From Escherichia phage RB43, in the sequence record NC_007023.1: a stretch of 64,000 bases of DNA. One strand, written 5' to 3'. Shown in pieces: positions 3,283-57,002 of this stretch. The stretch's first letter is position 1. Every line of letters starts with the position of its first letter. A program made the translations under genes and the position numbers. Below the pieces are notes generated by a model. It made no database searches, was not told the DNA's origin, and saw nothing but the letters and a program-made list of their open reading frames with translations.

Positions 3283-4674
3283 ATGAGTAACAACACAATT
3301 AACCACGTAAGCGATGCGTCCGTTTACGTGACTTTTGATCCGGCAGGTACGCAATGGCCCTCGACTTTCGTCAACGTACAGCAAGCATTAGCCTCTATAG
3401 GCCCGTGGGCGCGTACTGATGTTGGTTTGCCTAACGCGGCTCCTGGTATGCGTGGTATTGCTGCTATTGCTACCGAGGCGATGATTGACGCAGGGACAGA
3501 CAACGAAACGATCGTTACTCCTGCATTGCTGGCATATCGTTTACAAAATCCTCATGCGTCACAAACCGTTTGGGGATATACCAAATACGCAACTGATGCG
3601 GAAGCGGTTGATGTCGCAAACGATCTGGTTTCATTAACTCCGCGTTCGATCAATGTGGTTTTCAATACCAGACACGCATCAGAAACCGTGTGGGGTTCTT
3701 CTAAACTGTCAACGACAGCACAGGCAACAGCGGGTACTGATGATACAACCTCAATGACACCATTGAAGGTAAAACAAGCAATCTCTGCTCTGGTTCCGGT
3801 ACAATCCAACGCAACAGAAAGCGCGTTCGGTTTGGTTCAGTTGGCTACGGTTTCAGAAGTCCGCGCGGGTACTATTCGCGACGGTTTCGCAATTTCACCG
3901 TATACGTTTATTCGTCTGAATGCAACAGAAAGCGATCTGGGTATTGTTCGCCTAGCAAGTCAGGCAGAAGTAAACGCAGGAACTGATGATACCAAAGCCG
4001 TTACCCCGTTAAAACTGGCTAACCTTAAAGGCTCCGGTGGTTCTTTCGGTTTGGTTAAATTATCAACAGAAGTAAACGCAGGGCTGGCTAACACTGCTCT
4101 TTCTGCGGGTGCTAACGTAGTACCGAGCAACCGTGACAGCGCTATCACTGGTGGTGCATTGTATCAGGGTTCAGTTGCTGCTGCTAATAAATACCAGACA
4201 CATAGCGATATCGAAGCATCGTTACCGATTGGCTGTATGATGATGGCTGCATTTAACTCCGATTACGGAAACCTGTGTATTGCCAACGGTCGCGGGATGT
4301 ATACATACGAATACCCTGAACTGTTTGCACTTATAGGTTATACGTATGGCGGTAGTGGTAACATTTTCAACCTTCCCGATATGCGAGGCGTGGTTGCTCG
4401 TGGATTTGATGCGGGACGTGGTTTAGACCCAGGTCGCGGTTTTGGTACATACCAGCATCACGAAGTACAGTCACATGAACACCCTCTGCAAATGATCTAT
4501 CAGTCTGGTGGTAACTTACCATCATGGCAGTGTGTTTATGAACTGCGTACTGCGGAGAAAAACGACCAGCAATTATACTGGCCTGATCCTTCACTCAGTA
4601 AAGCAATGGCTGTTGGCGGCAACGAAACGCGAATGAAGAACCTTGCGATCAACTATGTAATTCGAGTACGATAA
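3283..4674 (+). CDS. 12: short tail fibre protein gp12
   Basis: 463 aa; position after gp11; repeated ...A(T/G)TDDT..VTP(L/A)K... motifs typical of T4 gp12/gp34 fibre repeats; C-terminal His-rich receptor-binding-like region. Confidence 0.8.
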   Translation: MSNNTINHVSDASVYVTFDPAGTQWPSTFVNVQQALASIGPWARTDVGLPNAAPGMRGIAAIATEAMIDAGTDNETIVTPALLAYRLQNPHASQTVWGYTKYATDAEAVDVANDLVSLTPRSINVVFNTRHASETVWGSSKLSTTAQATAGTDDTTSMTPLKVKQAISALVPVQSNATESAFGLVQLATVSEVRAGTIRDGFAISPYTFIRLNATESDLGIVRLASQAEVNAGTDDTKAVTPLKLANLKGSGGSFGLVKLSTEVNAGLANTALSAGANVVPSNRDSAITGGALYQGSVAAANKYQTHSDIEASLPIGCMMMAAFNSDYGNLCIANGRGMYTYEYPELFALIGYTYGGSGNIFNLPDMRGVVARGFDAGRGLDPGRGFGTYQHHEVQSHEHPLQMIYQSGGNLPSWQCVYELRTAEKNDQQLYWPDPSLSKAMAVGGNETRMKNLAINYVIRVR

Positions 4675-4686
4675 AGGGGTTAATCC

Positions 4687-6975
4687 ATGATTTCAAAACT
4701 TAACCCGTTACCAAAGATCCCGTTTGTTGATGGTGTCCCTTCGGACACCACACAAACCCCGATCAACTGGATAATTAACGGCGAAACTCTCGATGGTGCT
4801 AAAACCAAAGTCACTAACGAGGGTTCTTTAAACAGGTGCGGTGTTCTGGTACAAAAGAACGCGGTGCAATTAGAAACCAACACCATTACACAGACTGCAA
4901 AAATCAACGAAGTTATCGATCAGGTTAACCTCATTAGTGAAAACCTCGCGGCTATTTCTGATGAAAGCGTGATTGACAAACTGGATCAGGTTGTTGCTGA
5001 TGTAGAAGTGTTGAAAGTTGATATGACTGCGGTTCAAGGTTCTACTGCAAGCAATACCCTGAAAATCCAGGATCTCGATAAAGAGATCGGGACGTGGGAC
5101 GCTTCAACAGATCCTAAACACCGTACCATTCGAAAAGATATTATTTTCCTGAAAGGGGAAATGGGTGCGTACCCTGGGTTTAACGAAAACGGCGACGTAG
5201 ATCCGACATCAACGGGTTCCGGCATGAAATACAAAATCATGACGAACGCGCAAGCGATTTCGATTCATGAAGGACGTATTACGCGCCTTGAAGATGATTG
5301 GGCTAACTCAGACGTAGGTCATTTAACTGATGAAGTAACCGATCTGCGTAACGAAATGGGGCCAAAACATTTAGCGACATTTGAATCTGTATATGTTCGC
5401 CTGAACACTATCGGTACTGAGATCACTGGTATCAATTCCGAACTAACCAGCATCAACCAATATATCGGTCGTACTGGCACGGGTGGAACTGGTAGTATTT
5501 CTGCGCGTATGACTACGGCAGAATCGAATATCGCAACCCTGCAAACGCAGATGAATGATTCTGCTACTGGTGTATTACCTCGCGTAATTTCTTTGGAAAA
5601 TGCTGTCGGTAACTCTCAGATCCCTGGTAGTATTCGTTACGACATCAGCGCAATCAAACGTGACATCGGTGATATCAACATGATCGTCGGTGAATCAAGC
5701 GATGATGGTCTTCGTGGGGAAATGGCTCAGGTTATGACCGATATCGGTACTGATTCACAGCCTACGAGCATCAAAGGCCGTTTGCTGAACGTTGAGAACA
5801 CCCAACGTGACGATCATCAGAAACTGATTGACGTTGAATCTGTTGTTGGTAATACTTCAAGTGGACTCGTTGCGGCTAATATCGCGATGGGTAAAGCTGT
5901 TTACGGTGATGCAACGAGTTCTGATCCATTCCTGAAAGACGGTATTCAGAAAACAGCGCGTGACAGTAAAGCGGCTATCGGTGTAAACACAACCGGATCT
6001 GAAACAGGGATCTATAAACTGATTTCGGATTTGACTGCTCGTGTTGCTGCACTTGAAAGCGGTACTGGTGGCGAACTTGAACAACGTGTTTCTGATTTGG
6101 AAACCAATAAAGCATCGCATCAGGACGTTGCAAACGCATTGGTTCCGTATATTACCGAAGCGGAAGCAGATGTTAAGTACGAACCGAAGAAAATTCCGTT
6201 ATCGTTTACGCAAAACCTTGTTGGGCGTGGCGATTATATCGAAGGTGATGACATTTCTTTCATGGTTACGGTAACAGGTGGTAAACTGCCTTATGTCTAC
6301 CAGTGGAAGAAAGGAACCGCTGATGTAGGTACTAACGCATCGAGCATTCTGATCCAAAGCATTACCTCTGCCGACGCTGGCGTGTATAAAGTTGTTGTTA
6401 CCGATGCAGACAACACCGTAATTACTTCTGACGAAGTGACGGTTGCTGTTTATCCGGTTCCTCAGTTTGATACTAACCTGGCTGACAAATCGGTGGTTGA
6501 CGGTGATCCTCTGACTCTGGAAGTTGTATACAGCGGTGGTAAACCTCCGTACACTTACGAATGGTTCAAAGATAACTCTGTTATCTCTGGGGAAACATCA
6601 GCAACATTTACCAAATCTGCTGTTACAAGCGCTGATGCTGGTGAATACTATGTTTCTGTAACTGACGCAATGAACAACCAAAACGATTCAGTGAAAGCAA
6701 CCGTGACTGTAACACCTCGTCCGGCTCTTGCATTCACTACGGATCTGAGTGCTACTAAATCATACAGCACAGGTGCTAACATGGATCTTGCTGTTGTCGT
6801 GACTGGTGGTAAAACACCATATACGTATAAATGGTTTAAAGACACTGCGGAAATTTCCGGTCAGACAGGTGCAAGCCTTACCACTGTAGCAGAAGATGGG
6901 GTGTATAAAGTCGAAGTGACGGATGCACTAACGACTAAAATCACATCAACTGAATGCACGGTAACTGTGGCATAA
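4687..6975 (+). CDS. wac: fibritin (whisker/neck fibre, wac) with atypical C-terminal triple Ig-like array
   Basis: N-terminus (PFVDGVPSD...INWIINGETLDGA) matches T4 fibritin; long heptad-rich middle; last ~255 aa form three ~85-aa Ig-like repeats (GGK.PY.Y.W.K...SADAGVYKV.VTD); no foldon-like sequence. Confidence 0.8.
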   Translation: MISKLNPLPKIPFVDGVPSDTTQTPINWIINGETLDGAKTKVTNEGSLNRCGVLVQKNAVQLETNTITQTAKINEVIDQVNLISENLAAISDESVIDKLDQVVADVEVLKVDMTAVQGSTASNTLKIQDLDKEIGTWDASTDPKHRTIRKDIIFLKGEMGAYPGFNENGDVDPTSTGSGMKYKIMTNAQAISIHEGRITRLEDDWANSDVGHLTDEVTDLRNEMGPKHLATFESVYVRLNTIGTEITGINSELTSINQYIGRTGTGGTGSISARMTTAESNIATLQTQMNDSATGVLPRVISLENAVGNSQIPGSIRYDISAIKRDIGDINMIVGESSDDGLRGEMAQVMTDIGTDSQPTSIKGRLLNVENTQRDDHQKLIDVESVVGNTSSGLVAANIAMGKAVYGDATSSDPFLKDGIQKTARDSKAAIGVNTTGSETGIYKLISDLTARVAALESGTGGELEQRVSDLETNKASHQDVANALVPYITEAEADVKYEPKKIPLSFTQNLVGRGDYIEGDDISFMVTVTGGKLPYVYQWKKGTADVGTNASSILIQSITSADAGVYKVVVTDADNTVITSDEVTVAVYPVPQFDTNLADKSVVDGDPLTLEVVYSGGKPPYTYEWFKDNSVISGETSATFTKSAVTSADAGEYYVSVTDAMNNQNDSVKATVTVTPRPALAFTTDLSATKSYSTGANMDLAVVVTGGKTPYTYKWFKDTAEISGQTGASLTTVAEDGVYKVEVTDALTTKITSTECTVTVA

Positions 6976-7010: not shown

Positions 7011-7934
7011 ATGATTACGAACAATCCTGAACAATTGAAGGATGAAATTCTTCGTCGTCTGGGCGCACCAATCATCAAAATCGAAATCACACAAGACCAG
7101 ATTTACGATTGCATTCAACGCGCACTGGATCTGTATGCGGAATATCACTACAACGGAACAAACAAAAGTTACATTATCCTTACGTTAGGCGAAGACAACC
7201 CGCGAAACGTATTTGATTTGAGTAAAGAACATATTTTCGCGGTTACAAAAGTATTGCGTACAAATATCGGTTCATTGGTTTCTATGGACGGTACAGCGGT
7301 TTATCCGTGGTTTACTGATTTCCTGATGGGGCTTACTGGTGGTTCTCTGGGCGGTCGCTGTGCATCAAGCGTGTACGGTATGAATGCATATGGCGCGGAT
7401 CTGGGGTATTTTACACAGATGATGTCATATCAACGTTCAATGCAAGAGTTGCTGGCTCCATTACCTGATTACTGGTACAACGATGACACTGGTCAGTTTT
7501 GTGTATGGGGTAAAGTCAACAACGGTGATATTATTGTCATTGAAGTGATGGTAAGATCCTTTGTCGATGTTCCTAGTGCCGTAGGAAGCGTTGCAGGATA
7601 CGCTACAGCGGGTTCTAACGCAGTAGAAGACCAATCCATAGCCGACATCTACGATAACCCGTATAACGCGGTTGTGGGCGGTGTACGAGCGGGACAGGGT
7701 ACAACTGTTACTGGTGGAACCTCTGCATATAACAACCGTTGGGTAAAAGACTACTCAACCGCGCTGGTAAAAGAAATCAACGGGCAAATTCTGGCTAAGT
7801 TTCAGGGTATGCAATTGCCTGGTGGTGTTGCTCCAGATGGAACACGACTGATTCAGGAAGCGGAAACCAAATTACAAGGATTGCGCGACGAACTGATTTC
7901 TATGTCTGACGCAGTTCCTATTATTATGGTGTAG
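7011..7934 (+). CDS. 13: neck protein gp13
   Basis: 307 aa; ...LGAPII.IE.T.DQIYDCIQRALDLY...NNRWVKDY..AL.KE.NGQILA... matches T4 gp13. Confidence 0.9.
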   Translation: MITNNPEQLKDEILRRLGAPIIKIEITQDQIYDCIQRALDLYAEYHYNGTNKSYIILTLGEDNPRNVFDLSKEHIFAVTKVLRTNIGSLVSMDGTAVYPWFTDFLMGLTGGSLGGRCASSVYGMNAYGADLGYFTQMMSYQRSMQELLAPLPDYWYNDDTGQFCVWGKVNNGDIIVIEVMVRSFVDVPSAVGSVAGYATAGSNAVEDQSIADIYDNPYNAVVGGVRAGQGTTVTGGTSAYNNRWVKDYSTALVKEINGQILAKFQGMQLPGGVAPDGTRLIQEAETKLQGLRDELISMSDAVPIIMV

Positions 7935-8689: not shown

Positions 8690-8761
8690 ATACAAATAGG
8701 GGAAACCCTATATATGTTGGGGTGTATGGTGAAAACCTGCACCCGATTCAAAGAGGATCTT

Positions 8762-9376
8762 ATGATATACACAAAACTTAAAGAATGGTTGCCTCATGAT
8801 CTATACGTTGAGTATGTTGATATCATAACGGCTTCACCAAAAACAGAATACACAGAAAAACATCATATATTACCACGATCGCTATTTCCTGAATTTGAAA
8901 ACGACCCAGACAACTTAGTAGAACTTGATGTGATGAAGCATTTGATGGCTCATAGGACATTAGCAAAAACCAATGACCATAAAATGATTCTCGCGTTTTT
9001 CATGATGTTCACCTACGAACATAAACGTTATTCTACATTGTCAGAACAGGAACAACAATTTATTCTTGAAGAAAAGACAAAAGCCCGTGAAGCAATGCGT
9101 GTTGTTAAAAAAGAACAGATGAAAGGTAAATATGATGGTGAAAACAACCCATTTTACGGAAAACGACATACTGATGAATTTAAGAAAATGATGGGTTCTG
9201 TGCATAAAGGTAAGAAGTTATCACCAGAACATTTAGCAAATCTCGTTGCCGCACACAAAGGCAAAAAACGAGAAAAAGTAAAATGCCCCCATTGTGGGAT
9301 AATGTGCGCCGCTAATACAGCAAAGCGCTGGCACTTCGATAACTGTAAGTCTGGACTTGTCCAGCAGGGGGATTAG
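8762..9376 (+). CDS. free-standing HNH homing endonuclease with NUMOD-like repeats (start could be upstream ATG 8714)
   Basis: HHILPRSLFPEF...NLVELDVMKHLMAH HNH motif plus repeated NPFYGKRHT / GKKLSPEHL / GKKREK NUMOD3-like motifs; RBS AGAGGA before ATG 8762; sits between gp14 and gp15 where T4 has no gene. Confidence 0.75.
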   Translation: MIYTKLKEWLPHDLYVEYVDIITASPKTEYTEKHHILPRSLFPEFENDPDNLVELDVMKHLMAHRTLAKTNDHKMILAFFMMFTYEHKRYSTLSEQEQQFILEEKTKAREAMRVVKKEQMKGKYDGENNPFYGKRHTDEFKKMMGSVHKGKKLSPEHLANLVAAHKGKKREKVKCPHCGIMCAANTAKRWHFDNCKSGLVQQGD

Positions 9377-18869: not shown

Positions 18870-20444
18870 ATGTCTAAGAAAAACGAATTGATGGAAAAAT
18901 GGAACGATCTTCTGGAATCTCAGGAAGGTTTACCGGATATCGCTACCAAATCCAAAAAACAACTGGTTGCTGCCATTCTGGAAGCCCAGGAAAAAGACGC
19001 TGAAACCGATCCGGTTTATCGCGACGAAAAAATCGTGGAATCCTTCGGTGGTTTCCTGGCCGAAGCAGAAATTGCTGGCGACCACAACTATGACCAGACT
19101 AACATCGCGTCTGGTAAATCCAGCGGTGCTATCACCAACATCGGTCCTGCTGTAATCGGTATGGTTCGCCGTGCGATCCCTAACCTGATTGCATTCGACA
19201 TTTGCGGTGTTCAGCCTATGACTGGCCCTACTGGTCAGGTGTTCGCTCTCCGTGCTGTCTACGGTAAAGATCCTCTGGCTGGCGGTACTCCGGCAGATGT
19301 TCGTGAAGCGTTCCATCCGATGTTTGCCCCGGATACCATGTATTCTGGTGAAGGTGCTCACACCGCATTCGCGAAAATCACCACTGGTACAGCGATCGCT
19401 ACTGGCGCTATCGTATACCACATTTTCCAGGAAACTGGTATTGCATACTTCCAGAACGTTACCTCCGGCAACGTGACTGTAACTGGTGCTGATCCGGCTG
19501 CTCTGGATGCTGCTGTAATCGCAGAGAACGAAAAAGGTACTCTGGCTGAAATCTCTGTTGGTATGGCTACCAGTGTAGCAGAACTGCAAGAGAACTTCAA
19601 CGGTTCTAGCGCTAACCCGTGGAACGAAATGGCTTTCCGTATCGACAAACAGGTTATCGAAGCCCGTAGCCGCCAACTGAAAGCACAGTATTCTGTTGAA
19701 CTGGCACAGGATCTTCGCGCTGTTCACGGTATGGATGCTGACGCAGAACTGTCTGCAATTCTGGCAACTGAAATCATGCTGGAAATCAACCGCGAAATCG
19801 TTGATCTGATCAACTATACCGCTCAGGTTGGTAAATCTGGTTTCACCCAGACCGTAGGCTCTAAAGCTGGTTCCTTCGACTTCCAAGATCCGGTAGATAT
19901 TCGCGGCGCTCGTTGGGCTGGTGAAAGCTACAAGGCTCTGCTGATTCAGATCGACAAAGAAGCAAACGAAATCGCACGTCAGACAGGCCGTGGTGCTGGT
20001 AACTTCATCATCGCTTCCCGTAACGTGGTTTCCGCTCTGGCTCGTATCGACAGCGGCATCACTCCGGCAAGTCAAGGTCTCCAGAAGACTCTGAACGTTG
20101 ATACCACGAAAGCAGTATTCGCTGGTGTTCTGGGTGGCACTTACAAAGTGTACATTGACCAGTACGCACGTCAGGATTACTTCACCGTTGGCTTCAAGGG
20201 CGACAACGAAATGGATGCTGGTATCTACTACGCGCCATACGTTGCACTGACCCCGCTGCGTGGTTCTGATCCGAAGAACTTCCAGCCAGTAATGGGCTTC
20301 AAAACTCGTTACGGTATCGGTATCAACCCGTTTGCGAACTCTCGCTCTCAGGCTCCGGCAGATCGTATCACCTCTGGTATGATCAGCAAAGAAATGTGCG
20401 GTAAAAACGCATACTTCCGTAAGGTCTGGGTTAAAGGTCTGTAA
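18870..20444 (+). CDS. 23: major capsid protein gp23
   Basis: 524 aa; near-identical blocks to T4 gp23 (AEAEIAGDHNYDQTNIA, RRAIPNLIAFDICGVQPM, YIDQYARQDYFTVG). Confidence 0.97.
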   Translation: MSKKNELMEKWNDLLESQEGLPDIATKSKKQLVAAILEAQEKDAETDPVYRDEKIVESFGGFLAEAEIAGDHNYDQTNIASGKSSGAITNIGPAVIGMVRRAIPNLIAFDICGVQPMTGPTGQVFALRAVYGKDPLAGGTPADVREAFHPMFAPDTMYSGEGAHTAFAKITTGTAIATGAIVYHIFQETGIAYFQNVTSGNVTVTGADPAALDAAVIAENEKGTLAEISVGMATSVAELQENFNGSSANPWNEMAFRIDKQVIEARSRQLKAQYSVELAQDLRAVHGMDADAELSAILATEIMLEINREIVDLINYTAQVGKSGFTQTVGSKAGSFDFQDPVDIRGARWAGESYKALLIQIDKEANEIARQTGRGAGNFIIASRNVVSALARIDSGITPASQGLQKTLNVDTTKAVFAGVLGGTYKVYIDQYARQDYFTVGFKGDNEMDAGIYYAPYVALTPLRGSDPKNFQPVMGFKTRYGIGINPFANSRSQAPADRITSGMISKEMCGKNAYFRKVWVKGL

Positions 20445-20460
20445 TCGACTTTACACTAAA

Positions 20461-20488
20461 AGGCAACCTACGGGTTGCCTTTTTTGTT
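20461..20488 (+). terminator. strong rho-independent terminator after gene 23
   Basis: AGGCAACCTACGGGTTGCCT hairpin followed by TTTTTTGTTTG. Confidence 0.75.
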
Positions 20489-20537
20489 TGTGTAAATAGA
20501 TACAGGTAAAACACCATATAATTCAGGAACCATAGAA

Positions 20538-21860
20538 ATGAGTGATAAACACTACACAATTCACAAGTTGATGCGTCAGTCTACGCTTCCGTCTGGTAAA
20601 CGCGAAAAGGTTATCAACGAAGCAACAGGCACGACAGATATCAACGTACAGAACACGCGCCCAGAACTGGTTTCTTTAACTCGCGCCGTGAACAACCTGA
20701 TCTATCATGAACTGGTTGCAGTACAAGAAACTGATTTACCAGTAGCAACGCTTTTTGGTGTTCGTTATCGTAACCCTAACGGCGATATGACTTTCTCCAG
20801 CGCTGCAACCTATTCAGGCCGAATTTCAGGGCGTACAGGCATCGATGATATCGATCTGGCTAAAGCATACGTTAAGGGTGATTTATTCAAGCACGATGTC
20901 ACTGACGTTGTTTATGAGGTTATCGCACCGATTACGCTAAACACCCTGGATACTGACAAAGACACCGCACTGATGAAAGGTGTTTTCCAAAGTAAAATTC
21001 GTCTGGTGAGTGAAGCCGCTGATACATCGAAATACGAAACAAGCGAAGATATCGCATCAACTTCGTTCCAGATGGATCGCTGGAATATTCCGGTACGCTC
21101 TCGTAAGTTTAAAACCGAAATGACGGTTGAACTTATACAGGATCTGGAAGCAAACCAGTTTGAAGCAGATGGGGTTATCGAGGATATTCTGGGTACTGTT
21201 GCCAGTGAAGAAGTTAACAAAGATATCATCCAGACTCTGATCACCGTATCTAAGCGTTATAACGTTAACGGTGTTGTGACTGACGGTATTTTTGATGCTA
21301 CCACGTCTTACACTGCTGCTGATGCTCCGGCATTAGGCCGTATGCTGTATCAATTAGCGTGTGAAATGGGGCAGGAAATGAATAAAACCACTTCATTTGA
21401 TGCTACCTACGTCCTTTGCTCTGCTCGCGTCACAGGCATTCTGGCTGCGTCTGGTTGGATGACCGAAACTGACGAACAACACCCGCTGGCAACTGGTAAG
21501 CTACAGAACGGTTATTATGTCTATACAGACACGAACACCCCGTTTGATTATCTGCTGACAGGCTGTAAGTACGATCTGGGTGATATGGACCATGTTGGTT
21601 CTCTGTTCTTCACTCCGTACACCGAAGCCGACGAAGCAGGTTCAATCAAGGTATCCGTAGATCCGGCATCACTGCAACCGAAAGTAGCAATTCTGATGCG
21701 TTACGGTTTGTCTGTGAACCCGTATACAACTGAAACCGATTCTGATCGCCTGATCAAAGGTGACGATTGGTCTAACCTCGCAGGTAAATCTAAATTGAGT
21801 CAGATCGTAGGTGTTAAATTACCTACCTGGGTTAATCATGTTTTGAGAAGACCATTATAG
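20538..21860 (+). CDS. 24: capsid vertex protein gp24
   Basis: 440 aa gp23 paralogue following gene 23, as in T4. Confidence 0.9.
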   Translation: MSDKHYTIHKLMRQSTLPSGKREKVINEATGTTDINVQNTRPELVSLTRAVNNLIYHELVAVQETDLPVATLFGVRYRNPNGDMTFSSAATYSGRISGRTGIDDIDLAKAYVKGDLFKHDVTDVVYEVIAPITLNTLDTDKDTALMKGVFQSKIRLVSEAADTSKYETSEDIASTSFQMDRWNIPVRSRKFKTEMTVELIQDLEANQFEADGVIEDILGTVASEEVNKDIIQTLITVSKRYNVNGVVTDGIFDATTSYTAADAPALGRMLYQLACEMGQEMNKTTSFDATYVLCSARVTGILAASGWMTETDEQHPLATGKLQNGYYVYTDTNTPFDYLLTGCKYDLGDMDHVGSLFFTPYTEADEAGSIKVSVDPASLQPKVAILMRYGLSVNPYTTETDSDRLIKGDDWSNLAGKSKLSQIVGVKLPTWVNHVLRRPL

Positions 21861-24875: not shown

Positions 24876-25796
24876 ATGAAAATTGATTACGAATTGGTAG
24901 AAGGGTTCCGTGCTCTGCCTACTAAAGAACAGAAAGGCGCACTGGCTGACTACGCTCAAAGCACCTTTGAAGTAAAATTGAACAAACAAAAATCATTCGA
25001 TAACATGCTGGCTGATCTGGAAGCTGCTGTACCAGCGGAAGAAGAAAAACCGGAACTGCTGATTGATTCCCCAGAATCCGCGATCGTTTCGTACACTGGT
25101 AGCGTTGCAATGGATGAACCTGTTGTTAACGCTCCGAACATTCCTGATGTTGTTGTCGATGTGTCGCAGGACTTTATGGATTACGTCAAAGACGTTGCGC
25201 CGGAAGTGGCTGATCAGATTAAATTAGTCCCTGATGTTGTTGTCGATGTGTCGCAGGACTTTATGGATTACGTCAAAGACGTTGCGCCGGAAGTGGCTGA
25301 TCAGATTAAATTAGTCCCTGATGTTGTTGTCGATGTGTCGCAGGACTTTATGGATTACGTCAAAGACGTTGCGCCGGAAGTGGCTGATCAGATTAAATTA
25401 GTCCCTGATGTTGTTGTCGATGTGTCGCAGGACTTTATGGATTACGTCAAAGACGTTGCGCCGGAAGTGGCTGATCAGATTAAATTAGTCCCTGATGTTG
25501 TAGAAGCGTCTGTAACCGCTTCTGACGAGTCCAAAGCTGATATGGCATGGTTGGACGGGTTTAGCCCTACAATCGTTCTGATGGGGCGTAGCGCTCGTTC
25601 TAACGGCTATTATACGTGTCCCTGGTGGATCTACGATTGGATTAAGAAAAATCCAGATTGGTACAAAGATCCTGACCAGTGTCCACACTACAGCGCACGG
25701 GATACCCTGAAATCGCTGGTGTACTACATCAAACGTGATGGTCAAGTTACTGTGCGTGAAACGCGCAACAGCAGTTTCGATACCTTCAAATTTTAG
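24876..25796 (+). CDS. Hoc-like capsid decoration protein with C-terminal capsid-binding domain and internal 4 x 29-aa perfect tandem repeat
   Basis: C-terminal ...YYTCPWWIYDWIKKNPDWYKDPD...RDGQVTVRETRN resembles T4 Hoc capsid-binding domain (AYIWCGWWVMDEI...GKDW...DVQESRNGY) as recalled; location next to uvsW as for T4 hoc; RBS GGAGA. Confidence 0.6.
   Translation: MKIDYELVEGFRALPTKEQKGALADYAQSTFEVKLNKQKSFDNMLADLEAAVPAEEEKPELLIDSPESAIVSYTGSVAMDEPVVNAPNIPDVVVDVSQDFMDYVKDVAPEVADQIKLVPDVVVDVSQDFMDYVKDVAPEVADQIKLVPDVVVDVSQDFMDYVKDVAPEVADQIKLVPDVVVDVSQDFMDYVKDVAPEVADQIKLVPDVVEASVTASDESKADMAWLDGFSPTIVLMGRSARSNGYYTCPWWIYDWIKKNPDWYKDPDQCPHYSARDTLKSLVYYIKRDGQVTVRETRNSSFDTFKF
25143..25501 (+). repeat. 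perfect 87-bp direct tandem repeat, 4 full copies plus 11-bp partial, in-frame inside the Hoc-like gene
   Basis: Copies start at 25143, 25230, 25317, 25404; each encodes PDVVVDVSQDFMDYVKDVAPEVADQIKLV. Confidence 0.95.
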
Positions 25797-26851: not shown

Positions 26852-27355
26852 ATGGCTACTGAAAAATGGACTACGGTTCACCCTATCCCGTGGCGTAACA
26901 CCAGCTTTACCTATCTTCCGTGGTGGATCTATGATATCATCGTTGCTGCTAATACGGCAGGTGGAGATTGGCGTGATTACGCAGAAGAAAAATATGCGAA
27001 AGAATTCGTCACGCTGAAACAAGCATACATCGACTAGACCGATGTTGATTTCATCGAATCTCGCAACGGCTACCTGTACAAACTCAGTGATTTTACTCCG
27101 GCTGATCCGGTTGTTACTATCACCCCGAAAACTGCCCCTGCTGATTTTAAAGTAGGCGATCCTGACCTTGCTGCAACCGATCTGTTTACTATCGATCCGA
27201 GCGGTACGGCTATGACTCTGACTGTGGATTCCTCTGGTCATGCGTCGATCGTTGGCGGTAAACTCCATGCTATAAGCGCTGGTGATGTTGTTGTAACGGC
27301 GACCTCCGGTTCTGTTACTGCAAACCTGACTGTAAATGTTAAAGTTGCTCCATAA
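26852..27355 (+). CDS. second Hoc-like gene: N-terminal capsid-binding domain interrupted by in-frame TAG (27035-27037), then Big_2-type Ig-like domain
   Basis: ATG 26852 to TAG gives 61 aa (VHPIPWRNTSFTYLPWWIYDII...GGDW...); same frame stays open to TAA 27353-27355 encoding ...FIESRNGYLYKL... plus Big_2-like domain; homology to Hoc spans the TAG. Confidence 0.5.
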
Positions 27356-54773: not shown

Positions 54774-57002
54774 TTGGAGTGCTTCGAATCTCCGTTATTG
54801 CCGTCAGGTGGACAAATAACGTATAAAGGCTGGCGTATCTATACCGAAAATGATCGCCCGACAGCGGAAGATATAGGGGCGTTGTCTCTTGCTAATGGTG
54901 GTACTGTTAACAATGATACGACATTCACGAAAAATATAACCGTAGGCGTTAATGCTGTTGCGGGTGCATTGTTTTCTAGATCGTACATCGATATTACTCG
55001 CGCCGGAAGTGAACCAAACATTGTTTTTCGTCGTTCTGATGTTACTACTACGCCGACGACAGAACAAGCCCTTTTAATACTTAATGCTATGAATGGGGCT
55101 AACGTTACTGCGGGTACGTTTAATATTCATGCGCGTACTGATGGCGGGAACAAAGTTTATATTACTGCGTATAAATCGGGATCACAAAATACATCATTAA
55201 CGCTAGATTCGCAACTTCAACAGGTAACGGTAGAACAAGGCACTTTCCGTGTCACTGGAAATACTGTTCTTGCTGGTGCAACTGCAACCACGTTAAACGT
55301 TACTGGGGCGTTGACTGCACAAACGGTTACTCCGGCGAACTGGCAAAATCACGATGTTCGTTATATGACGGGTATTCCGACCAACATGCAGGGAAATAGC
55401 CTAAGCGCTGCTGTTGTTACCGAAAAGAATGATGTTCTTTCCGTAAACGGTAACTTGGTTGATGGTCCTTATGGCGATAATACCTACGTGGGCCAGGTGG
55501 TAAACTATCGCCGCACGTCGAATGCGAGCAACTCGATCACTCAGTTCTTCCTTGATGGTACTGCTTTCCATATCCGTACAGGTTCTGGATCTCCTGGTGC
55601 TTGGTCTTGGACGGGTGGAGGTGCTAACGGTTGGCGTAAAGTGTATGATGAAAGTCACAAACCTACTCCGGCAGAAATCGGTGCATTGAAAAATACTACC
55701 GATACATTGAACGGTGAATTGGGTGTTATCGGTGATGTTTCTTTAAAATCACCTACAGGTCGTCATATTAAATTCGTGTATACGAAAAATGATGGTACTC
55801 AGATTGTTGATGGGTTTATCTACAAAGACGGACCTGATGCTGGTAATCGTCGTTCCGGTATTCGCATTAACTGTTATACGCCGAATAAAGAAACTGGTAA
55901 TGGGGAGTTTTCCGGTGAATTCATTTTCAACGAAAATGGTAGCTTTATTCTTCCTCCTGGCGGCACAATATATCAGGAAGGTATAACACCAGGTCTTTAC
56001 GCAAACGTTATATTAAGTGCCGCTGCTGCTGGTACTACATCATACCTTCGTAAATTCCGAGGTGGTGGCCCTGATACAATATGGCATGAGGCAGTTCGAT
56101 CTAACGTATACGCTTTGGGAACTGGCGCGACATATTCAAATGAAGTAATGACTCTCGATGACACTGGTAATCTGTCTATCAAAGGAACCCCGTCAACATC
56201 AACGAACGTTTTCCTGGATAGTGACGCAAAATCTGTTATTTGGTTTAGACATTCCGGCGGTGCGGAAAAAGGCGTTGTGTGGGCAGAGAGTGATGGTAAA
56301 TTAAAATTACGCGCAAATGCTGGCGGTTCTGCTACTTATGAGTTTTATGCTGGTATGATACACTCACAATACCCCGTATCAGGTACAGATCGCGGTATTA
56401 TTCGCGGTACTCCTGATGGGGGTGGTTGGGATCAATGGCGTGAACGTTCTGCTGCTGTATCTGTTGATGTTCCCGGTGTCAATAATAGCGCATACAGTAT
56501 CTGGAAAGCAACTTCATGGAATAACACCTATGTTGCTGCAATTGGATGTTCATATGCCCGAACTTTACACCAGGCGCCGGCCCGTGTTCGTCTGGTTCTG
56601 CAAAGTTCTGTTGCTTTCTACTTCGATGGTGATGGTAGCTTTAGTACAAGTACAGGGAACATCACGGCAGGTAATAGTGGTTACTTTAACGATGTGTATA
56701 TTCGTTCTGATGAAAAATTGAAAAGCAATTTCAATAAGATTGAAAACGCATTGGATAAGGTTGAACTGTTGAATGGTTTGACTTATGATAAAGCAAGCTA
56801 TATCGGTGGCGAAACTGTTAAGCGCGAAGCTGGTTTGATCGCACAGGAACTGCAAAAGGTATTACCGGAAGCCGTATCTGTTGGTAAGGATACCAAAGAA
56901 AACGAAGTGCTTGTTATTTCGCCAACTGCAACTATTGCATTACTGGTCGAAGCAATCAAAGAACTGCGTGAAGAAGTAAGGGAACTCAAATCCCGACAAT
57001 AA
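54774..57002 (+). CDS. long tail fibre distal subunit paralogue A (gp36/gp37-like) with C-terminal intramolecular chaperone domain; conserved N-terminus is in another frame from ATG 54730
   Basis: ORF track start is TTG 54774; upstream ATG 54730 frame encodes MADLKLGTTLGGAAIWSASN (gp36-type N-terminus) then stops 54819; body has GG.PDTIWHEAVR and C-terminal ...DVYIRSDEKLKSNF...GREAGLIAQELQKVLPEAV (S74-type chaperone). Confidence 0.7.
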   Translation: MECFESPLLPSGGQITYKGWRIYTENDRPTAEDIGALSLANGGTVNNDTTFTKNITVGVNAVAGALFSRSYIDITRAGSEPNIVFRRSDVTTTPTTEQALLILNAMNGANVTAGTFNIHARTDGGNKVYITAYKSGSQNTSLTLDSQLQQVTVEQGTFRVTGNTVLAGATATTLNVTGALTAQTVTPANWQNHDVRYMTGIPTNMQGNSLSAAVVTEKNDVLSVNGNLVDGPYGDNTYVGQVVNYRRTSNASNSITQFFLDGTAFHIRTGSGSPGAWSWTGGGANGWRKVYDESHKPTPAEIGALKNTTDTLNGELGVIGDVSLKSPTGRHIKFVYTKNDGTQIVDGFIYKDGPDAGNRRSGIRINCYTPNKETGNGEFSGEFIFNENGSFILPPGGTIYQEGITPGLYANVILSAAAAGTTSYLRKFRGGGPDTIWHEAVRSNVYALGTGATYSNEVMTLDDTGNLSIKGTPSTSTNVFLDSDAKSVIWFRHSGGAEKGVVWAESDGKLKLRANAGGSATYEFYAGMIHSQYPVSGTDRGIIRGTPDGGGWDQWRERSAAVSVDVPGVNNSAYSIWKATSWNNTYVAAIGCSYARTLHQAPARVRLVLQSSVAFYFDGDGSFSTSTGNITAGNSGYFNDVYIRSDEKLKSNFNKIENALDKVELLNGLTYDKASYIGGETVKREAGLIAQELQKVLPEAVSVGKDTKENEVLVISPTATIALLVEAIKELREEVRELKSRQ

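Follow-up and report, generated by a model that had tools for sequence, protein, structure and literature searches.

The open reading frame at positions 4687–6975 of the window, a 64,000-nucleotide stretch of the genome of Escherichia phage RB43 (NC_007023.1), encodes the neck-whisker protein of this phage (gpwac, fibritin), and this protein ends in three Ig-like domains and has no foldon. The core finding is correct but not new, having been in the literature since 2005. As quoted by Letarov and Krisch in 2013 (PMC3797505), Letarov et al. 2005 (J Bacteriol 187:1055) described three Ig-like domains on RB43 fibritin; the 2013 paper gives three such domains for RB43 and one for KP15, and proposes an adhesin-like role for those of RB43. 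For specialists in T4 phages the core fact is of textbook level: eight C-terminal variants of fibritin are known, that of RB43 among them, fibritin is listed among the Ig-bearing myovirus proteins, and reviews on phage Ig domains and on adherence to mucus already mention the Ig-like domains on fibritin. The protein analysed here is the published one, being 100% identical to the product annotated "wac: fibritin" in the RB43 GenBank record AY266305.1. What is added to the published description is the range of 0–5 Ig cassettes among relatives with their shuffled orders, an Ig-less form, a beta-layer reading of the junction, an analysis of selection and a comparison with Slopekvirus Hoc, and these extensions beyond the known core fact are of modest value. 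With a probability of about 0.6, we read the protein as a whisker fibritin with a beta-layer cap and a tassel of nine Ig domains that would bind surface carbohydrate in a weak, multivalent manner.

Identity of the gene and its T4-like part

The wac coding sequence (4687..6975, + strand, from the list of open reading frames) comprises 762 codons and a stop codon. It is flanked by gene 12 (short tail fibre; 3283–4674) and gene 13 (neck; 7011–7934), and the order gene 12–wac–gene 13 is common to RB43, RB16 and T4. The product matches the PHROG fibritin family with an E-value of 8e-185.

RB43 Wac resembles T4 fibritin (PDB 1AA0, 2BSG, 3J2O) in gene position, in the N-terminal attachment domain and in the segmented shaft. 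The N-terminal neck-attachment domain (residues 1–60; 4687..4866, + strand), the role of which is taken from the literature on fibritin (PMC3797505), aligns with T4 fibritin from residue 8/9 and is the most conserved part of Wac, with 94% identity and 92% invariant columns among 21 relatives. The segmented coiled-coil shaft (residues 61–455; 4867..6051, + strand) shares homology with that of T4 as far as T4 residue 454, and is 86% identical among the relatives with a dN/dS of 0.05–0.10. BLASTP aligns 416 residues of the RB43 and T4 proteins at 33% identity (E 9e-52), and phmmer places RB43 residues 9–456 on T4 residues 7–454 (E 5e-47), stopping three residues before the T4 foldon; overall, the part of RB43 Wac alignable with T4 fibritin spans residues 8–456. 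The T4-fibritin-like N-terminus and long coiled coil proposed in the earlier note are thus borne out. The Pfam Fibritin_C family scores 81.5 bits (cut-off 21) on the full-length protein, with profile positions 1–64 lying on residues 373–436 of the shaft. All fibritins examined biochemically are trimers (PMC3797505).

Three Ig-like domains at the C-terminus

T4 fibritin closes with a foldon hairpin of 27–30 residues, whereas the RB43 protein runs on for 259 residues as three Ig-like domains. Domain 1 (residues 504–590, cassette type C; 6196..6456, + strand) carries the Pfam Ig_3/SprB motif and is modelled by AlphaFold2 as a beta-sandwich with pLDDT >90; domain 2 (residues 591–677, cassette type D; 6457..6717, + strand) is defined by Pfam, AlphaFold2 and Foldseek; and domain 3 (residues 678–762, cassette type B; 6718..6972, + strand), which forms the C-terminus of the protein, corresponds to the third Ig_3 stretch and is also seen in the AlphaFold2 model. 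The repeats had been placed at 6199–6975. Codon 505 begins at 6199 and the stop codon ends at 6975, so this placement is right; the boundary of the first domain is set here one codon earlier, at residue 504 (nucleotide 6196).

The repeats are 85–87 residues long and pairwise 40–50% identical in protein and 49–56% in DNA. All three contain GGK[LPT]PY.Y.W.K followed by (S)A(D/E)(A/D)G.Y.V.VTD; each repeat has the Y.W and the D(A/S)G.Y.V motif, and the canonical cysteine pair is absent, as is common in phage Ig-like domains. Pfam Ig_3 matches the C-terminal part of Wac in three stretches (78.8 bits, cut-off 30, E 4e-22), and I-set (53.6 bits, cut-off 23.7, E 2e-14) and Ig_2 (55.6 bits, cut-off 27) also score above their curated cut-offs, the best stretches of all three families being located at residues 592–673 in domain 2. 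Two PHROG families of Hoc-like head decoration proteins match the Ig part within residues 491–677 only (E 1e-57 and 8e-45). The AlphaFold2 monomer model of residues 440–762 contains three beta-sandwiches with pLDDT >90, and the best Foldseek match of this model is the tandem of titin I-set Ig domains I67–I69 (E 1.5e-17), RB49 Hoc being found at rank 18 (E 4e-15). The Ig-repeat signal is far beyond chance, and the three C-terminal repeats of about 85 residues that had been noticed from the sequence are indeed Ig-like. The chain ends with the last beta-strand of domain 3 (CTVTVA), and nothing foldon-like follows it.

Absence of the foldon and the junction that takes its place

The earlier note had also stated that RB43 Wac lacks a foldon of the T4 type, and the foldon is absent in every test, only the YI[T/P]EA start resembling it. 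A local alignment of the T4 foldon against the whole RB43 protein chooses YITEAEAD, which is rightly placed, but this alignment is not significant, with 348 of 500 shuffled sequences scoring equally or higher. A phmmer search with the junction alone retrieves nothing from the PDB at E ≤10, although the PDB should include foldon-tagged chains, and a profile of the junction does not retrieve foldon chains from the PDB. By hhalign, VPYITEAEADV-KY of the junction is aligned with the start of the T4 foldon with P 0.01 and a probability of 4%, and the hairpin and tryptophan positions of the foldon are filled by KKIPLSF, with which the first Ig strand begins. In the full-length protein the Fibritin_C match reaches profile position 93, and this end-to-end match was considered as a foldon signal and discarded, since no score is obtained when residues 437–503 or 457–503 are scanned separately, whereas the C-terminal 48 residues of T4 fibritin score 39.6 bits as a positive control.

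The C-terminal foldon marks the T4/JS98 subtype only and not the whole fibritin family. Folding driven by the foldon is limited to T4- and JS98-type fibritins, and the folding of RB43 and the other fibritins needs either sequences in an expanded C-terminal domain or a downstream gene (PMC3797505). The folding sequences of RB43 in the expanded C-terminal domain described there might lie in the Ig domains and not in the junction, a point that counts against a cap formed by the junction.

The place of the T4 foldon is taken by a junction of 48 codons, residues 456–503 (LESGTGGELEQRVSDLETNKASHQDVANALVPYITEAEADVKYEPKKI; 6052..6195, + strand), which we propose to be an alpha/beta coiled-coil cap. 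Its conserved motif, K-A-[SN]..D[VL] ... Y-[IYS]-[TK]-x-x-[EQ]-[AS]-D-x-K-[YF], is kept throughout the family, and the Ig-less form has it too. The candidate beta-layer 1 is K475-A476-S477 (6109..6117, + strand), which resembles the KAD beta-layer of 2C3F, and the candidate beta-layer 2 is Y488-I489-T490 (6148..6156, + strand), which corresponds in position to Y458-I459-P460, where the T4 foldon begins; a leading beta-layer YI[P/T]EA is thus a possible further likeness to T4 fibritin. In the AlphaFold2 monomer model, the helix breaks at residues 474–477 (NKAS) and 486–490 (VPYIT), which coincides with the two candidate layers. A published table of beta-layers includes KAD in the Streptococcus prophage tail fibre 2C3F, "...QQKADKETVYTKAESK..." (PMC4786415), and Hartmann et al. 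2016 in eLife assigned T4 YIP and 2C3F VYT as beta-layers (PMC4786415). The 10-residue spacing from KAS to YIT in RB43 equals that from LAT to KAD in 2C3F, and comparison of 2C3F "KADKETVYTKAESK" with the RB43-type "KANNTDVYSKVESD" and "KAS...YITEAEAD" reveals equal 10-residue and hexad spacings. The beta-layers of these alpha/beta coiled coils are published, whereas those of the RB43-type fibritin are read from sequence and a low-confidence monomer model. The junction profile matches the GCN4 beta-layer constructs 5apq, 5apt and 7o9v weakly (E about 0.03), and these statistics, together with the hhalign probability given above and a pLDDT of 50–63 over the junction of the monomer model, count against the cap. 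On the whole, KAS and YIT look like two trimer-specific beta-layers at the end of the coiled coil.

Variation of the Ig cassettes among relatives

Comparison with the wac genes of related phages reveals 0–5 Ig cassettes in shuffled orders, with the architectures C-D-B, C-D-B-E, C-D-E-B, C-D, B, B-E, I-E, G-H-F, J-K-B-F-B, A and none. The number, order and terminal type (B, D or E) of the Ig domains vary while the shafts stay 76–92% identical, and the cassette next to the junction likewise varies, being of type C, B, A, I, G, J or yet another. Type B is the sole Ig domain of the 571-residue relatives. The Ig-less fibritin of 493 residues is the product of a complete gene, again flanked by genes 12 and 13, and recurs as four sequences on nine contigs. 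Since T4 wac is non-essential, these Ig-less relatives are no proof that the Ig array can be dispensed with in function.

Purifying selection acts on the Ig modules, dN/dS being ≤0.15 in every region of Wac. Domain 3 (type B) is the most conserved Ig domain, with 85% identity and a dN/dS of 0.02–0.05, and domain 2 (type D) is the least conserved, with 69% identity among relatives. Domain 1 (type C) has a dN/dS of 0.09–0.13, and its dS against GuL6 is 2.1, compared with 0.4 for the shaft. Such heterogeneity of dS among regions, which ranges from 0.16 to 2.1, points to cassette replacement, and there are signs in the sequences that the Ig modules recombine among relatives.

Relation to Hoc and to other carriers of the I-set module

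The description of the Wac repeats as Hoc-like stands in so far as they belong to a widespread phage I-set module; the particular likeness to Hoc is weak for T4 (E 0.008) and modest for RB49 (E 8e-5). The cassettes are much closer to the Ig domains of siphophage tail proteins, of T5 pb10 and of a bacterial grappling-hook protein (E 2e-40 to 6e-14), and the I-set module occurs in 1469 phage records, on decoration, tail-tube and whisker proteins. The closest Ig sequences of solved structure are those of T5 pb10 (5LXK), the siphophage entries 9C2D and 9NCF and Sf11 gp24 (9OCC), with E-values of 2e-40 to 1e-9, and these differ in scaffold, which is the centre of the capsid hexamer or the tail tube in place of the whisker of RB43. 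The entry 9OCC, named "putative neck whiskers protein gp24", was considered as a solved Ig-tipped whisker and set aside, being the tail tube protein of siphophage Sf11. Because they share the Ig module, decoration proteins of the T5-like type and tail-tube proteins of siphophages are often misnamed "neck whiskers" or "fibritin".

The Hoc proteins of T4 (5VF3), RB49 (3SHS) and Slopekvirus resemble Wac in presenting about three I-set Ig-like domains in a string on the virion surface. Hoc is a monomer anchored to the capsid by a C-terminal ESRNG domain, whereas Wac is anchored to the neck via a trimeric coiled coil. The Hoc capsid-binding domain with its conserved ESRNG region was sought in Wac and is absent, and the Hoc-like PHROG match covers the Ig part alone.

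The earlier note had further supposed that two Hoc-like genes in the window carry non-Ig modules, and this is borne out only in part. The gene at 26852–27355 is a true small Hoc homologue with a capsid-binding domain, interrupted in this window by an amber codon, whereas that at 24876–25796 encodes an Inh-type prohead-protease inhibitor (phrog_1051, E 1.4e-74) with four perfect 29-residue repeats and a tail faintly like the Hoc capsid-binding domain. Pfam gives no match for the C-terminal module of the small Hoc homologue; a single-sequence AlphaFold2 model of this module has a pLDDT of 42, and its PDB matches are weak, to bacterial Ig-like repeats and a Hoc-like protein (E 0.16–0.5).

In Slopekvirus, the syntenic Hoc has three Ig domains and a capsid-binding domain and Wac has one Ig domain, whereas in the RB43 group Hoc is reduced to the capsid-binding domain with a C-terminal module of unrelated type, and it is Wac that carries three I-set Ig domains. 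Domains Ig2 and Ig3 of Slopekvirus Hoc are 48–52% identical to the Wac cassettes and intermixed with them in a neighbour-joining tree, and by this sequence comparison the Ig modules of Slopekvirus Hoc are of the same sub-family as the Wac cassettes. The module exchange between capsid-decoration and whisker proteins suggested from the RB43 sequence is plausible as an exchange between Hoc and Wac. We tentatively propose, while leaning against it, that Pseudotevenvirus and Slopekvirus draw on one exchangeable pool of I-set domains, which would be shared by Hoc and Wac and reciprocally distributed between them, and that the real replacement of the foldon would be a tandem beta-layer cap that keeps YI[P/T]EA and not the Ig array. 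Such a cap would be enough for trimer registration, so that natural 493-residue fibritins could end right after it.

Proposed organization of the whisker and alternative explanations

In the reading that we favour, the distal end of the coiled coil would be closed and kept in register by the beta-layers KAS (residues 475–477) and YIT (residues 488–490), the latter located where the T4 foldon starts with YIP. Beyond this cap, the three chains would separate, each forming a string of three Ig domains, and therefore each whisker would carry a tassel of nine. By analogy with Hoc, the Ig domains of Wac most likely have an adhesin role, probably as weak, multivalent binders of surface carbohydrate that form an accessory adhesin, a role put forward in 2013 for Hoc and for this protein. 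The shaft and junction would probably retain the T4-like role in holding the long tail fibres and helping their attachment, and the Ig array would be a modular add-on that is gained, lost and reordered by recombination among related phages.

An unlikely explanation, in our view, is that the Ig domains have replaced the foldon as a dock for the long tail fibre, binding the knee (gp35/gp36), serving attachment during assembly and fibre retraction under poor conditions, and having no part in host binding. According to Letarov et al., new fibritin C-termini reportedly accompany new gp36 C-termini, and such covariation would suit a dock. At 742 aa, the gp36 of RB43 is of unusual length, and it is strongly divergent among relatives, the tail-fibre genes being highly divergent within the genus (about 55% identity), and the C-terminal part of T4 fibritin touches the fibre near the knee (PMC3797505). 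The terminal domain, of type B, matches the shaft in its degree of conservation, and such constancy would also suit a specific protein partner, for instance the knee of the long tail fibre. A precise dock would be expected to constrain the domains, whereas their number varies from 0 to 5 together with their order and end type, Ig-less variants exist in nature, and the I-set module is found elsewhere on outward-exposed capsid decoration and tail-tube proteins that have no fibre partner.

Even less probable is the idea that the main task of the Ig domains, or of the first among them, is to nucleate folding and trimerisation in place of the foldon, whose chaperone-like part they would have taken over, any surface binding being incidental. 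The lack of a detectable foldon in RB43 Wac and the published dependence of fibritins other than the T4 and JS98 types on an expanded C-terminal domain or a downstream gene (PMC3797505) agree with it. The conserved element is the junction motif, whereas the Ig type adjacent to the junction varies and the Ig-less relatives on nine contigs do without any such domain. I-set domains are normally monomeric, and the monomer model suggests no trimer interface. It is very improbable that the repeats are of a different beta-repeat family, be it SprB, PKD or Big, or that a cryptic foldon exists. Pfam SprB does match the GG.PY.Y.W motif (E 1.5e-13), with weak PKD and Ig_7 matches, but a non-Ig fold is rejected by the Pfam Ig_3, I-set and Ig_2 scores well over their cut-offs, the AlphaFold2 sandwiches and the titin I-set tandem as the best structural match. 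For a cryptic foldon there are the extent of the full-protein Fibritin_C match and the hhalign placement of YITEAEAD over YIPEAPRD, but five sequence-based tests, with T4 as the positive control, yield no foldon: KKIPLSF occupies the hairpin and tryptophan positions, the junction has no Fibritin_C score of its own and most shuffles align equally well.

Implications

If the beta-layer cap is true, it would provide a second, foldon-independent trimerisation tag with a possible use in protein engineering. As a site for 0–5 Ig cassettes, the whisker tip is a natural place to seek adhesion that is specific to host or environment in therapeutic phages of Klebsiella, Enterobacter and Cronobacter.

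Domain organization of RB43 fibritin

The wac gene (4687-6975, + strand), which encodes fibritin of 762 aa, is 100% identical by megablast to AY266305.1 ('wac: fibritin', Pseudotevenvirus RB43) and in two RB43 genome records, and 99.2-99.9% identical in the Citrobacter phages CfP1, Xman, Miller and IME-CF2 and in E. coli phage RB16. It is flanked by gene 12 (3283-4674) and gene 13 (7011-7934), and this gene order, 12 - wac - 13, is common to RB16 and T4. The N-terminus and shaft match T4 fibritin, as the earlier note had stated: phmmer aligns aa 9-456 of RB43 with aa 7-454 of T4 (E 5e-47), BLASTP gives 33% identity over 416 aa (E 9e-52), and the PHROGs fibritin family covers aa 1-663 (E 8e-185).

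The remainder, correctly placed at 6199-6975 (from the start of codon 505 to the end of the stop codon), encodes three Ig-like repeats, whose boundaries were placed in this analysis at aa 504-590 (Ig1), 591-677 (Ig2) and 678-762 (Ig3). The repeats carry the motifs quoted in the earlier note and share 40-50% protein and 49-56% DNA identity with one another. Pfam Ig_3 matches three stretches with 78.8 bits against a cut-off of 30, Ig_2 and I-set also score, and the Pfam SprB repeat model matches the GG.PY.Y.W motif. An AlphaFold2 model of aa 440-762, built from an alignment of 21 relatives, has a mean pLDDT of 88, with three beta-sandwiches above 90 and a low-confidence helical stretch at aa 440-503, and a Foldseek search of the PDB with it places titin tandem I-set domains at the top (E 1.5e-17). 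These results confirm that RB43 wac has a T4-like N-terminus and shaft followed by three terminal Ig-like domains.

Absence of the foldon and the nature of the junction

A cryptic foldon, named in the earlier note as the result that would speak against its reading, was examined in five ways. The best local match of the T4 foldon peptide in the whole of wac, YITEAEAD against YIPEAPRD, lies exactly at the end of the coiled coil, but it is not significant, an equally high score being reached with 348 of 500 shuffled foldon sequences. A 73-aa junction segment gave no PDB match at E ≤10, although foldon-tagged chains were expected there, and a junction profile built from 13 diverse relatives did not retrieve foldon chains from the PDB. 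When this profile was compared by hhalign with the last 68 aa of T4 fibritin, VPYITEAEADV-KYEPKKIPLSF was aligned with a P value of 0.01 and a probability of only 4%. On full-length RB43 wac, the Pfam Fibritin_C match covers the whole profile (positions 1-93), which looked suspicious because this profile includes the foldon. As a control, the C-terminal 48 aa of T4 alone score 39.6 bits over positions 60-92; for RB43 aa 437-503 and 457-503 scanned alone there is no Fibritin_C match even at E ≤10, and cutting RB43 wac at aa 456 shrinks the match to positions 1-64. Therefore, a cryptic foldon is ruled out and the foldon is absent from RB43 wac, which would retain at most its first few residues.

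The junction between the shaft and Ig1 (aa 456-503), which occupies the place of the T4 foldon, carries in all relatives the motif K-A-[S/N]-x-x-D-[V/L], a spacer and Y-[I/Y/S]-[T/K]-x-x-[E/Q]-[A/S]-D-x-K-[Y/F]. In the PDB, its profile matches best, though weakly (E about 0.03), three engineered constructs with GCN4 beta-layers (5apq, 5apt and 7o9v). Natural beta-layers have been tabulated in the paper on GCN4 beta-layer constructs by Hartmann et al. 2016 (PMC4786415), in which the Streptococcus prophage tail fibre 2C3F ('LATKVETAQKLQQKADKETVYTKAESK') has the beta-layers LAT, KAD and VYT, and T4 fibritin has the beta-layer YIP, where its foldon begins. The short junctions among wac relatives ('SKANVSDVYTRTQADNKF', 'TKANNTDVYSKVESDARY') read almost identically to 2C3F, and the KAS-to-YIT spacing of RB43 is ten residues, as is the LAT-to-KAD spacing of 2C3F. 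The helix in the monomer model breaks exactly at NKAS (aa 474-477) and VPYIT (aa 486-490). The motif, the spacing, the beta-layer matches and the helix breaks together suggest that the junction may form a trimer-specific, two-layer alpha/beta coiled-coil cap, with YIT at the position of T4 YIP.

Variation and selection of the Ig cassettes

A search of 5.8 billion proteins yielded 291 relatives, the best 120 of which were surveyed by hmmsearch with the three RB43 repeats. These proteins have 0, 1, 2, 3, 4 or 5 Ig domains, with lengths of 493, 571-587, 663-679, 759-770, 851-853 and 941 aa, respectively. Clustering of their 202 Ig domains at 60% identity gave 14 cassette types. Architecture A (KP15-type, Slopekvirus) is found in 70 of the 120 proteins and C-D-B in 22 (RB43 and 21 others), followed by C-D-B-E (7), C-D (5), B alone (4), G-H-F (2), I-E (2) and forms without Ig (2); C-D-E-B, B-E, J-K-B-F-B and the single domains L, M and N occur once each. 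One of the two Ig-less proteins, P0042 (462 aa), appears to come from an RB43 gene that is truncated or frameshifted, since it shares 100% identity with RB43 as far as aa ~458 and closes with 'ALESGNRW'. The other is a 493-aa fibritin with neither foldon nor Ig domains, which ends six residues past the YYTKVESDAKF junction motif. Its gene is complete, lies between genes 12 and 13 (4001-5482 of L003, the 31.6-kb metagenome contig SRR31860671_213695), and is separated from gene 13 by a 46-bp gap; the form is represented by four sequences (P0050, P0121-P0123) on nine contigs from two sources.

The identity of 21 C-D-B proteins to RB43 is 94% in the N-terminus, 86% in the shaft, 72% in the junction, and 72%, 69% and 85% in Ig1, Ig2 and Ig3. 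Nei-Gojobori dN/dS values of RB43 against GuL6, Lw1 and leB are 0.02-0.15 in the wac regions, with the exception of the 60-aa N-terminus against leB (0.24). Therefore, the Ig domains are maintained by purifying selection. Against GuL6, dS reaches 2.1 in Ig1 and 1.0 in Ig2 but lies at 0.16-0.5 in the N-terminus, shaft, junction and Ig3, a pattern that cassette replacement by recombination would give.

Relationship to Hoc and other phage proteins

The Ig domains had been described as Hoc-like. RB49 Hoc is ranked 18 by Foldseek (E 4e-15), and PHROGs 'Hoc-like head decoration' families match the Ig part. By sequence, similarity is low to T4 Hoc (E 0.008) and to RB49 Hoc (E 8e-5), and far higher to the Ig-domain protein 9ncf, the siphophage tail protein 9c2d, the Aureispira grappling-hook protein and T5 pb10. 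By tblastn, the module is found in 1469 phage records, in decoration, tail-tube, tail-fibre and whisker proteins. The labels 'neck whiskers protein', 'fibritin (wac)' and 'Hoc-like' also sit on T5-type pb10 decoration and siphophage tail-tube proteins (e.g. PDB 9OCC chain A; T5-like phages SE3 and OSY-STA; Escherichia phage DUEC01), apparently by annotation transfer via the shared Ig module; the 9OCC paper identifies gp24 as the Sf11 tail tube protein.

The closest multi-domain match outside fibritins is a 353-aa protein of Slopekvirus Kpn35c1 (L005 2405-3466), whose gene is syntenic with RB16 'hoc' (L002 15478-15981). It consists of three Ig domains followed by a capsid-binding domain with 45% identity (E 2e-23) to the N-terminal 81 aa of RB16 small Hoc. 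Ig2 and Ig3 of this protein share 48-52% identity with cassettes of Wac, among which an unsupported neighbour-joining tree scatters them. Hoc and Wac of this clade therefore use a single module sub-family, and they do so in a reciprocal way: Slopekvirus has an Ig-rich Hoc and one Ig in Wac, whereas the RB43 group has a Hoc without I-set and three in Wac. The module exchange between Hoc and Wac suggested in the earlier note fits both observations but is not proven by them. Hoc domain order is inverted between these sister genera at one syntenic site, the capsid-binding domain following three Ig domains in Slopekvirus but preceding one unrelated C-terminal module in the RB16/RB43 group.

Other genes in the window

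Only one of the two genes called Hoc-like and non-Ig is a true Hoc homologue. This small hoc (26852-27355, +; phrog_11091, E 1e-112 for the RB16 protein), found in 58 phage records, encodes in RB16 167 aa comprising an N-terminal capsid-binding domain with an ESRNG motif and an ~85-aa C-terminal module. Codon 62 is an in-frame amber TAG (27035-27037) in the window and TAT (Tyr) in RB16, and two other RB43 records, 99.6% identical, annotate a single uninterrupted CDS; the amber codon stems either from a mutation in a laboratory stock or from an error in sequencing the source record. The other gene (24876-25796, +) encodes a homologue of Inh-type prohead protease inhibitors (phrog_1051, E 1.4e-74), with a faint likeness of its C-terminus to the Hoc capsid-binding domain (phrog_1149, E 1.6e-5; BLASTP E 0.001 to small Hoc). 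Within the gene, an 87-bp unit encoding VPDVVVDVSQDFMDYVKDVAPEVADQIKL is perfectly repeated in tandem, with 4.1 copies (100% matches; 25143-25501), and the gene's length of 921 bp against 657 bp in RB16 fits about three fewer copies there.

The gene 36 product (54774-57002, +) has 742 aa, T4 gp36 having about 221 aa. It is 98.2% identical in protein to AY266307.1 (RB43 'gp 36-37.1'), whereas wac is 100% identical to its own record, and identity within the genus falls to about 55%. A 220-aa ORF between genes 14 and 15 (8714-9376, +) is likely a homing endonuclease gene inserted among the neck and tail genes, since an 'endonuclease' is annotated at the same place in RB16. Between genes 23 and 24, where the window has only a short gap (20444-20538), RB16 carries a homing endonuclease as well.

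Relation to previous descriptions

The core of the earlier interpretation, three terminal Ig domains and no foldon, is correct and already known, since it is stated by Letarov and Krisch (PMC3797505); its side claims are only partly supported. These authors, citing Letarov et al. 2005, describe RB43 fibritin with three Ig-like domains and KP15 fibritin with one, restrict foldon-driven folding to the T4 and JS98 fibritins, and propose an accessory-adhesin role for Ig-bearing fibritins; papers citing Fraser et al. place fibritin among Ig-bearing myovirus proteins. The small additions made here are the series of 0-5 cassettes, the Ig-less form, the candidate beta-layer cap and the reciprocal Hoc/Wac pattern, and the reading that combines these four is a tentative one, with a probability of about 0.3.
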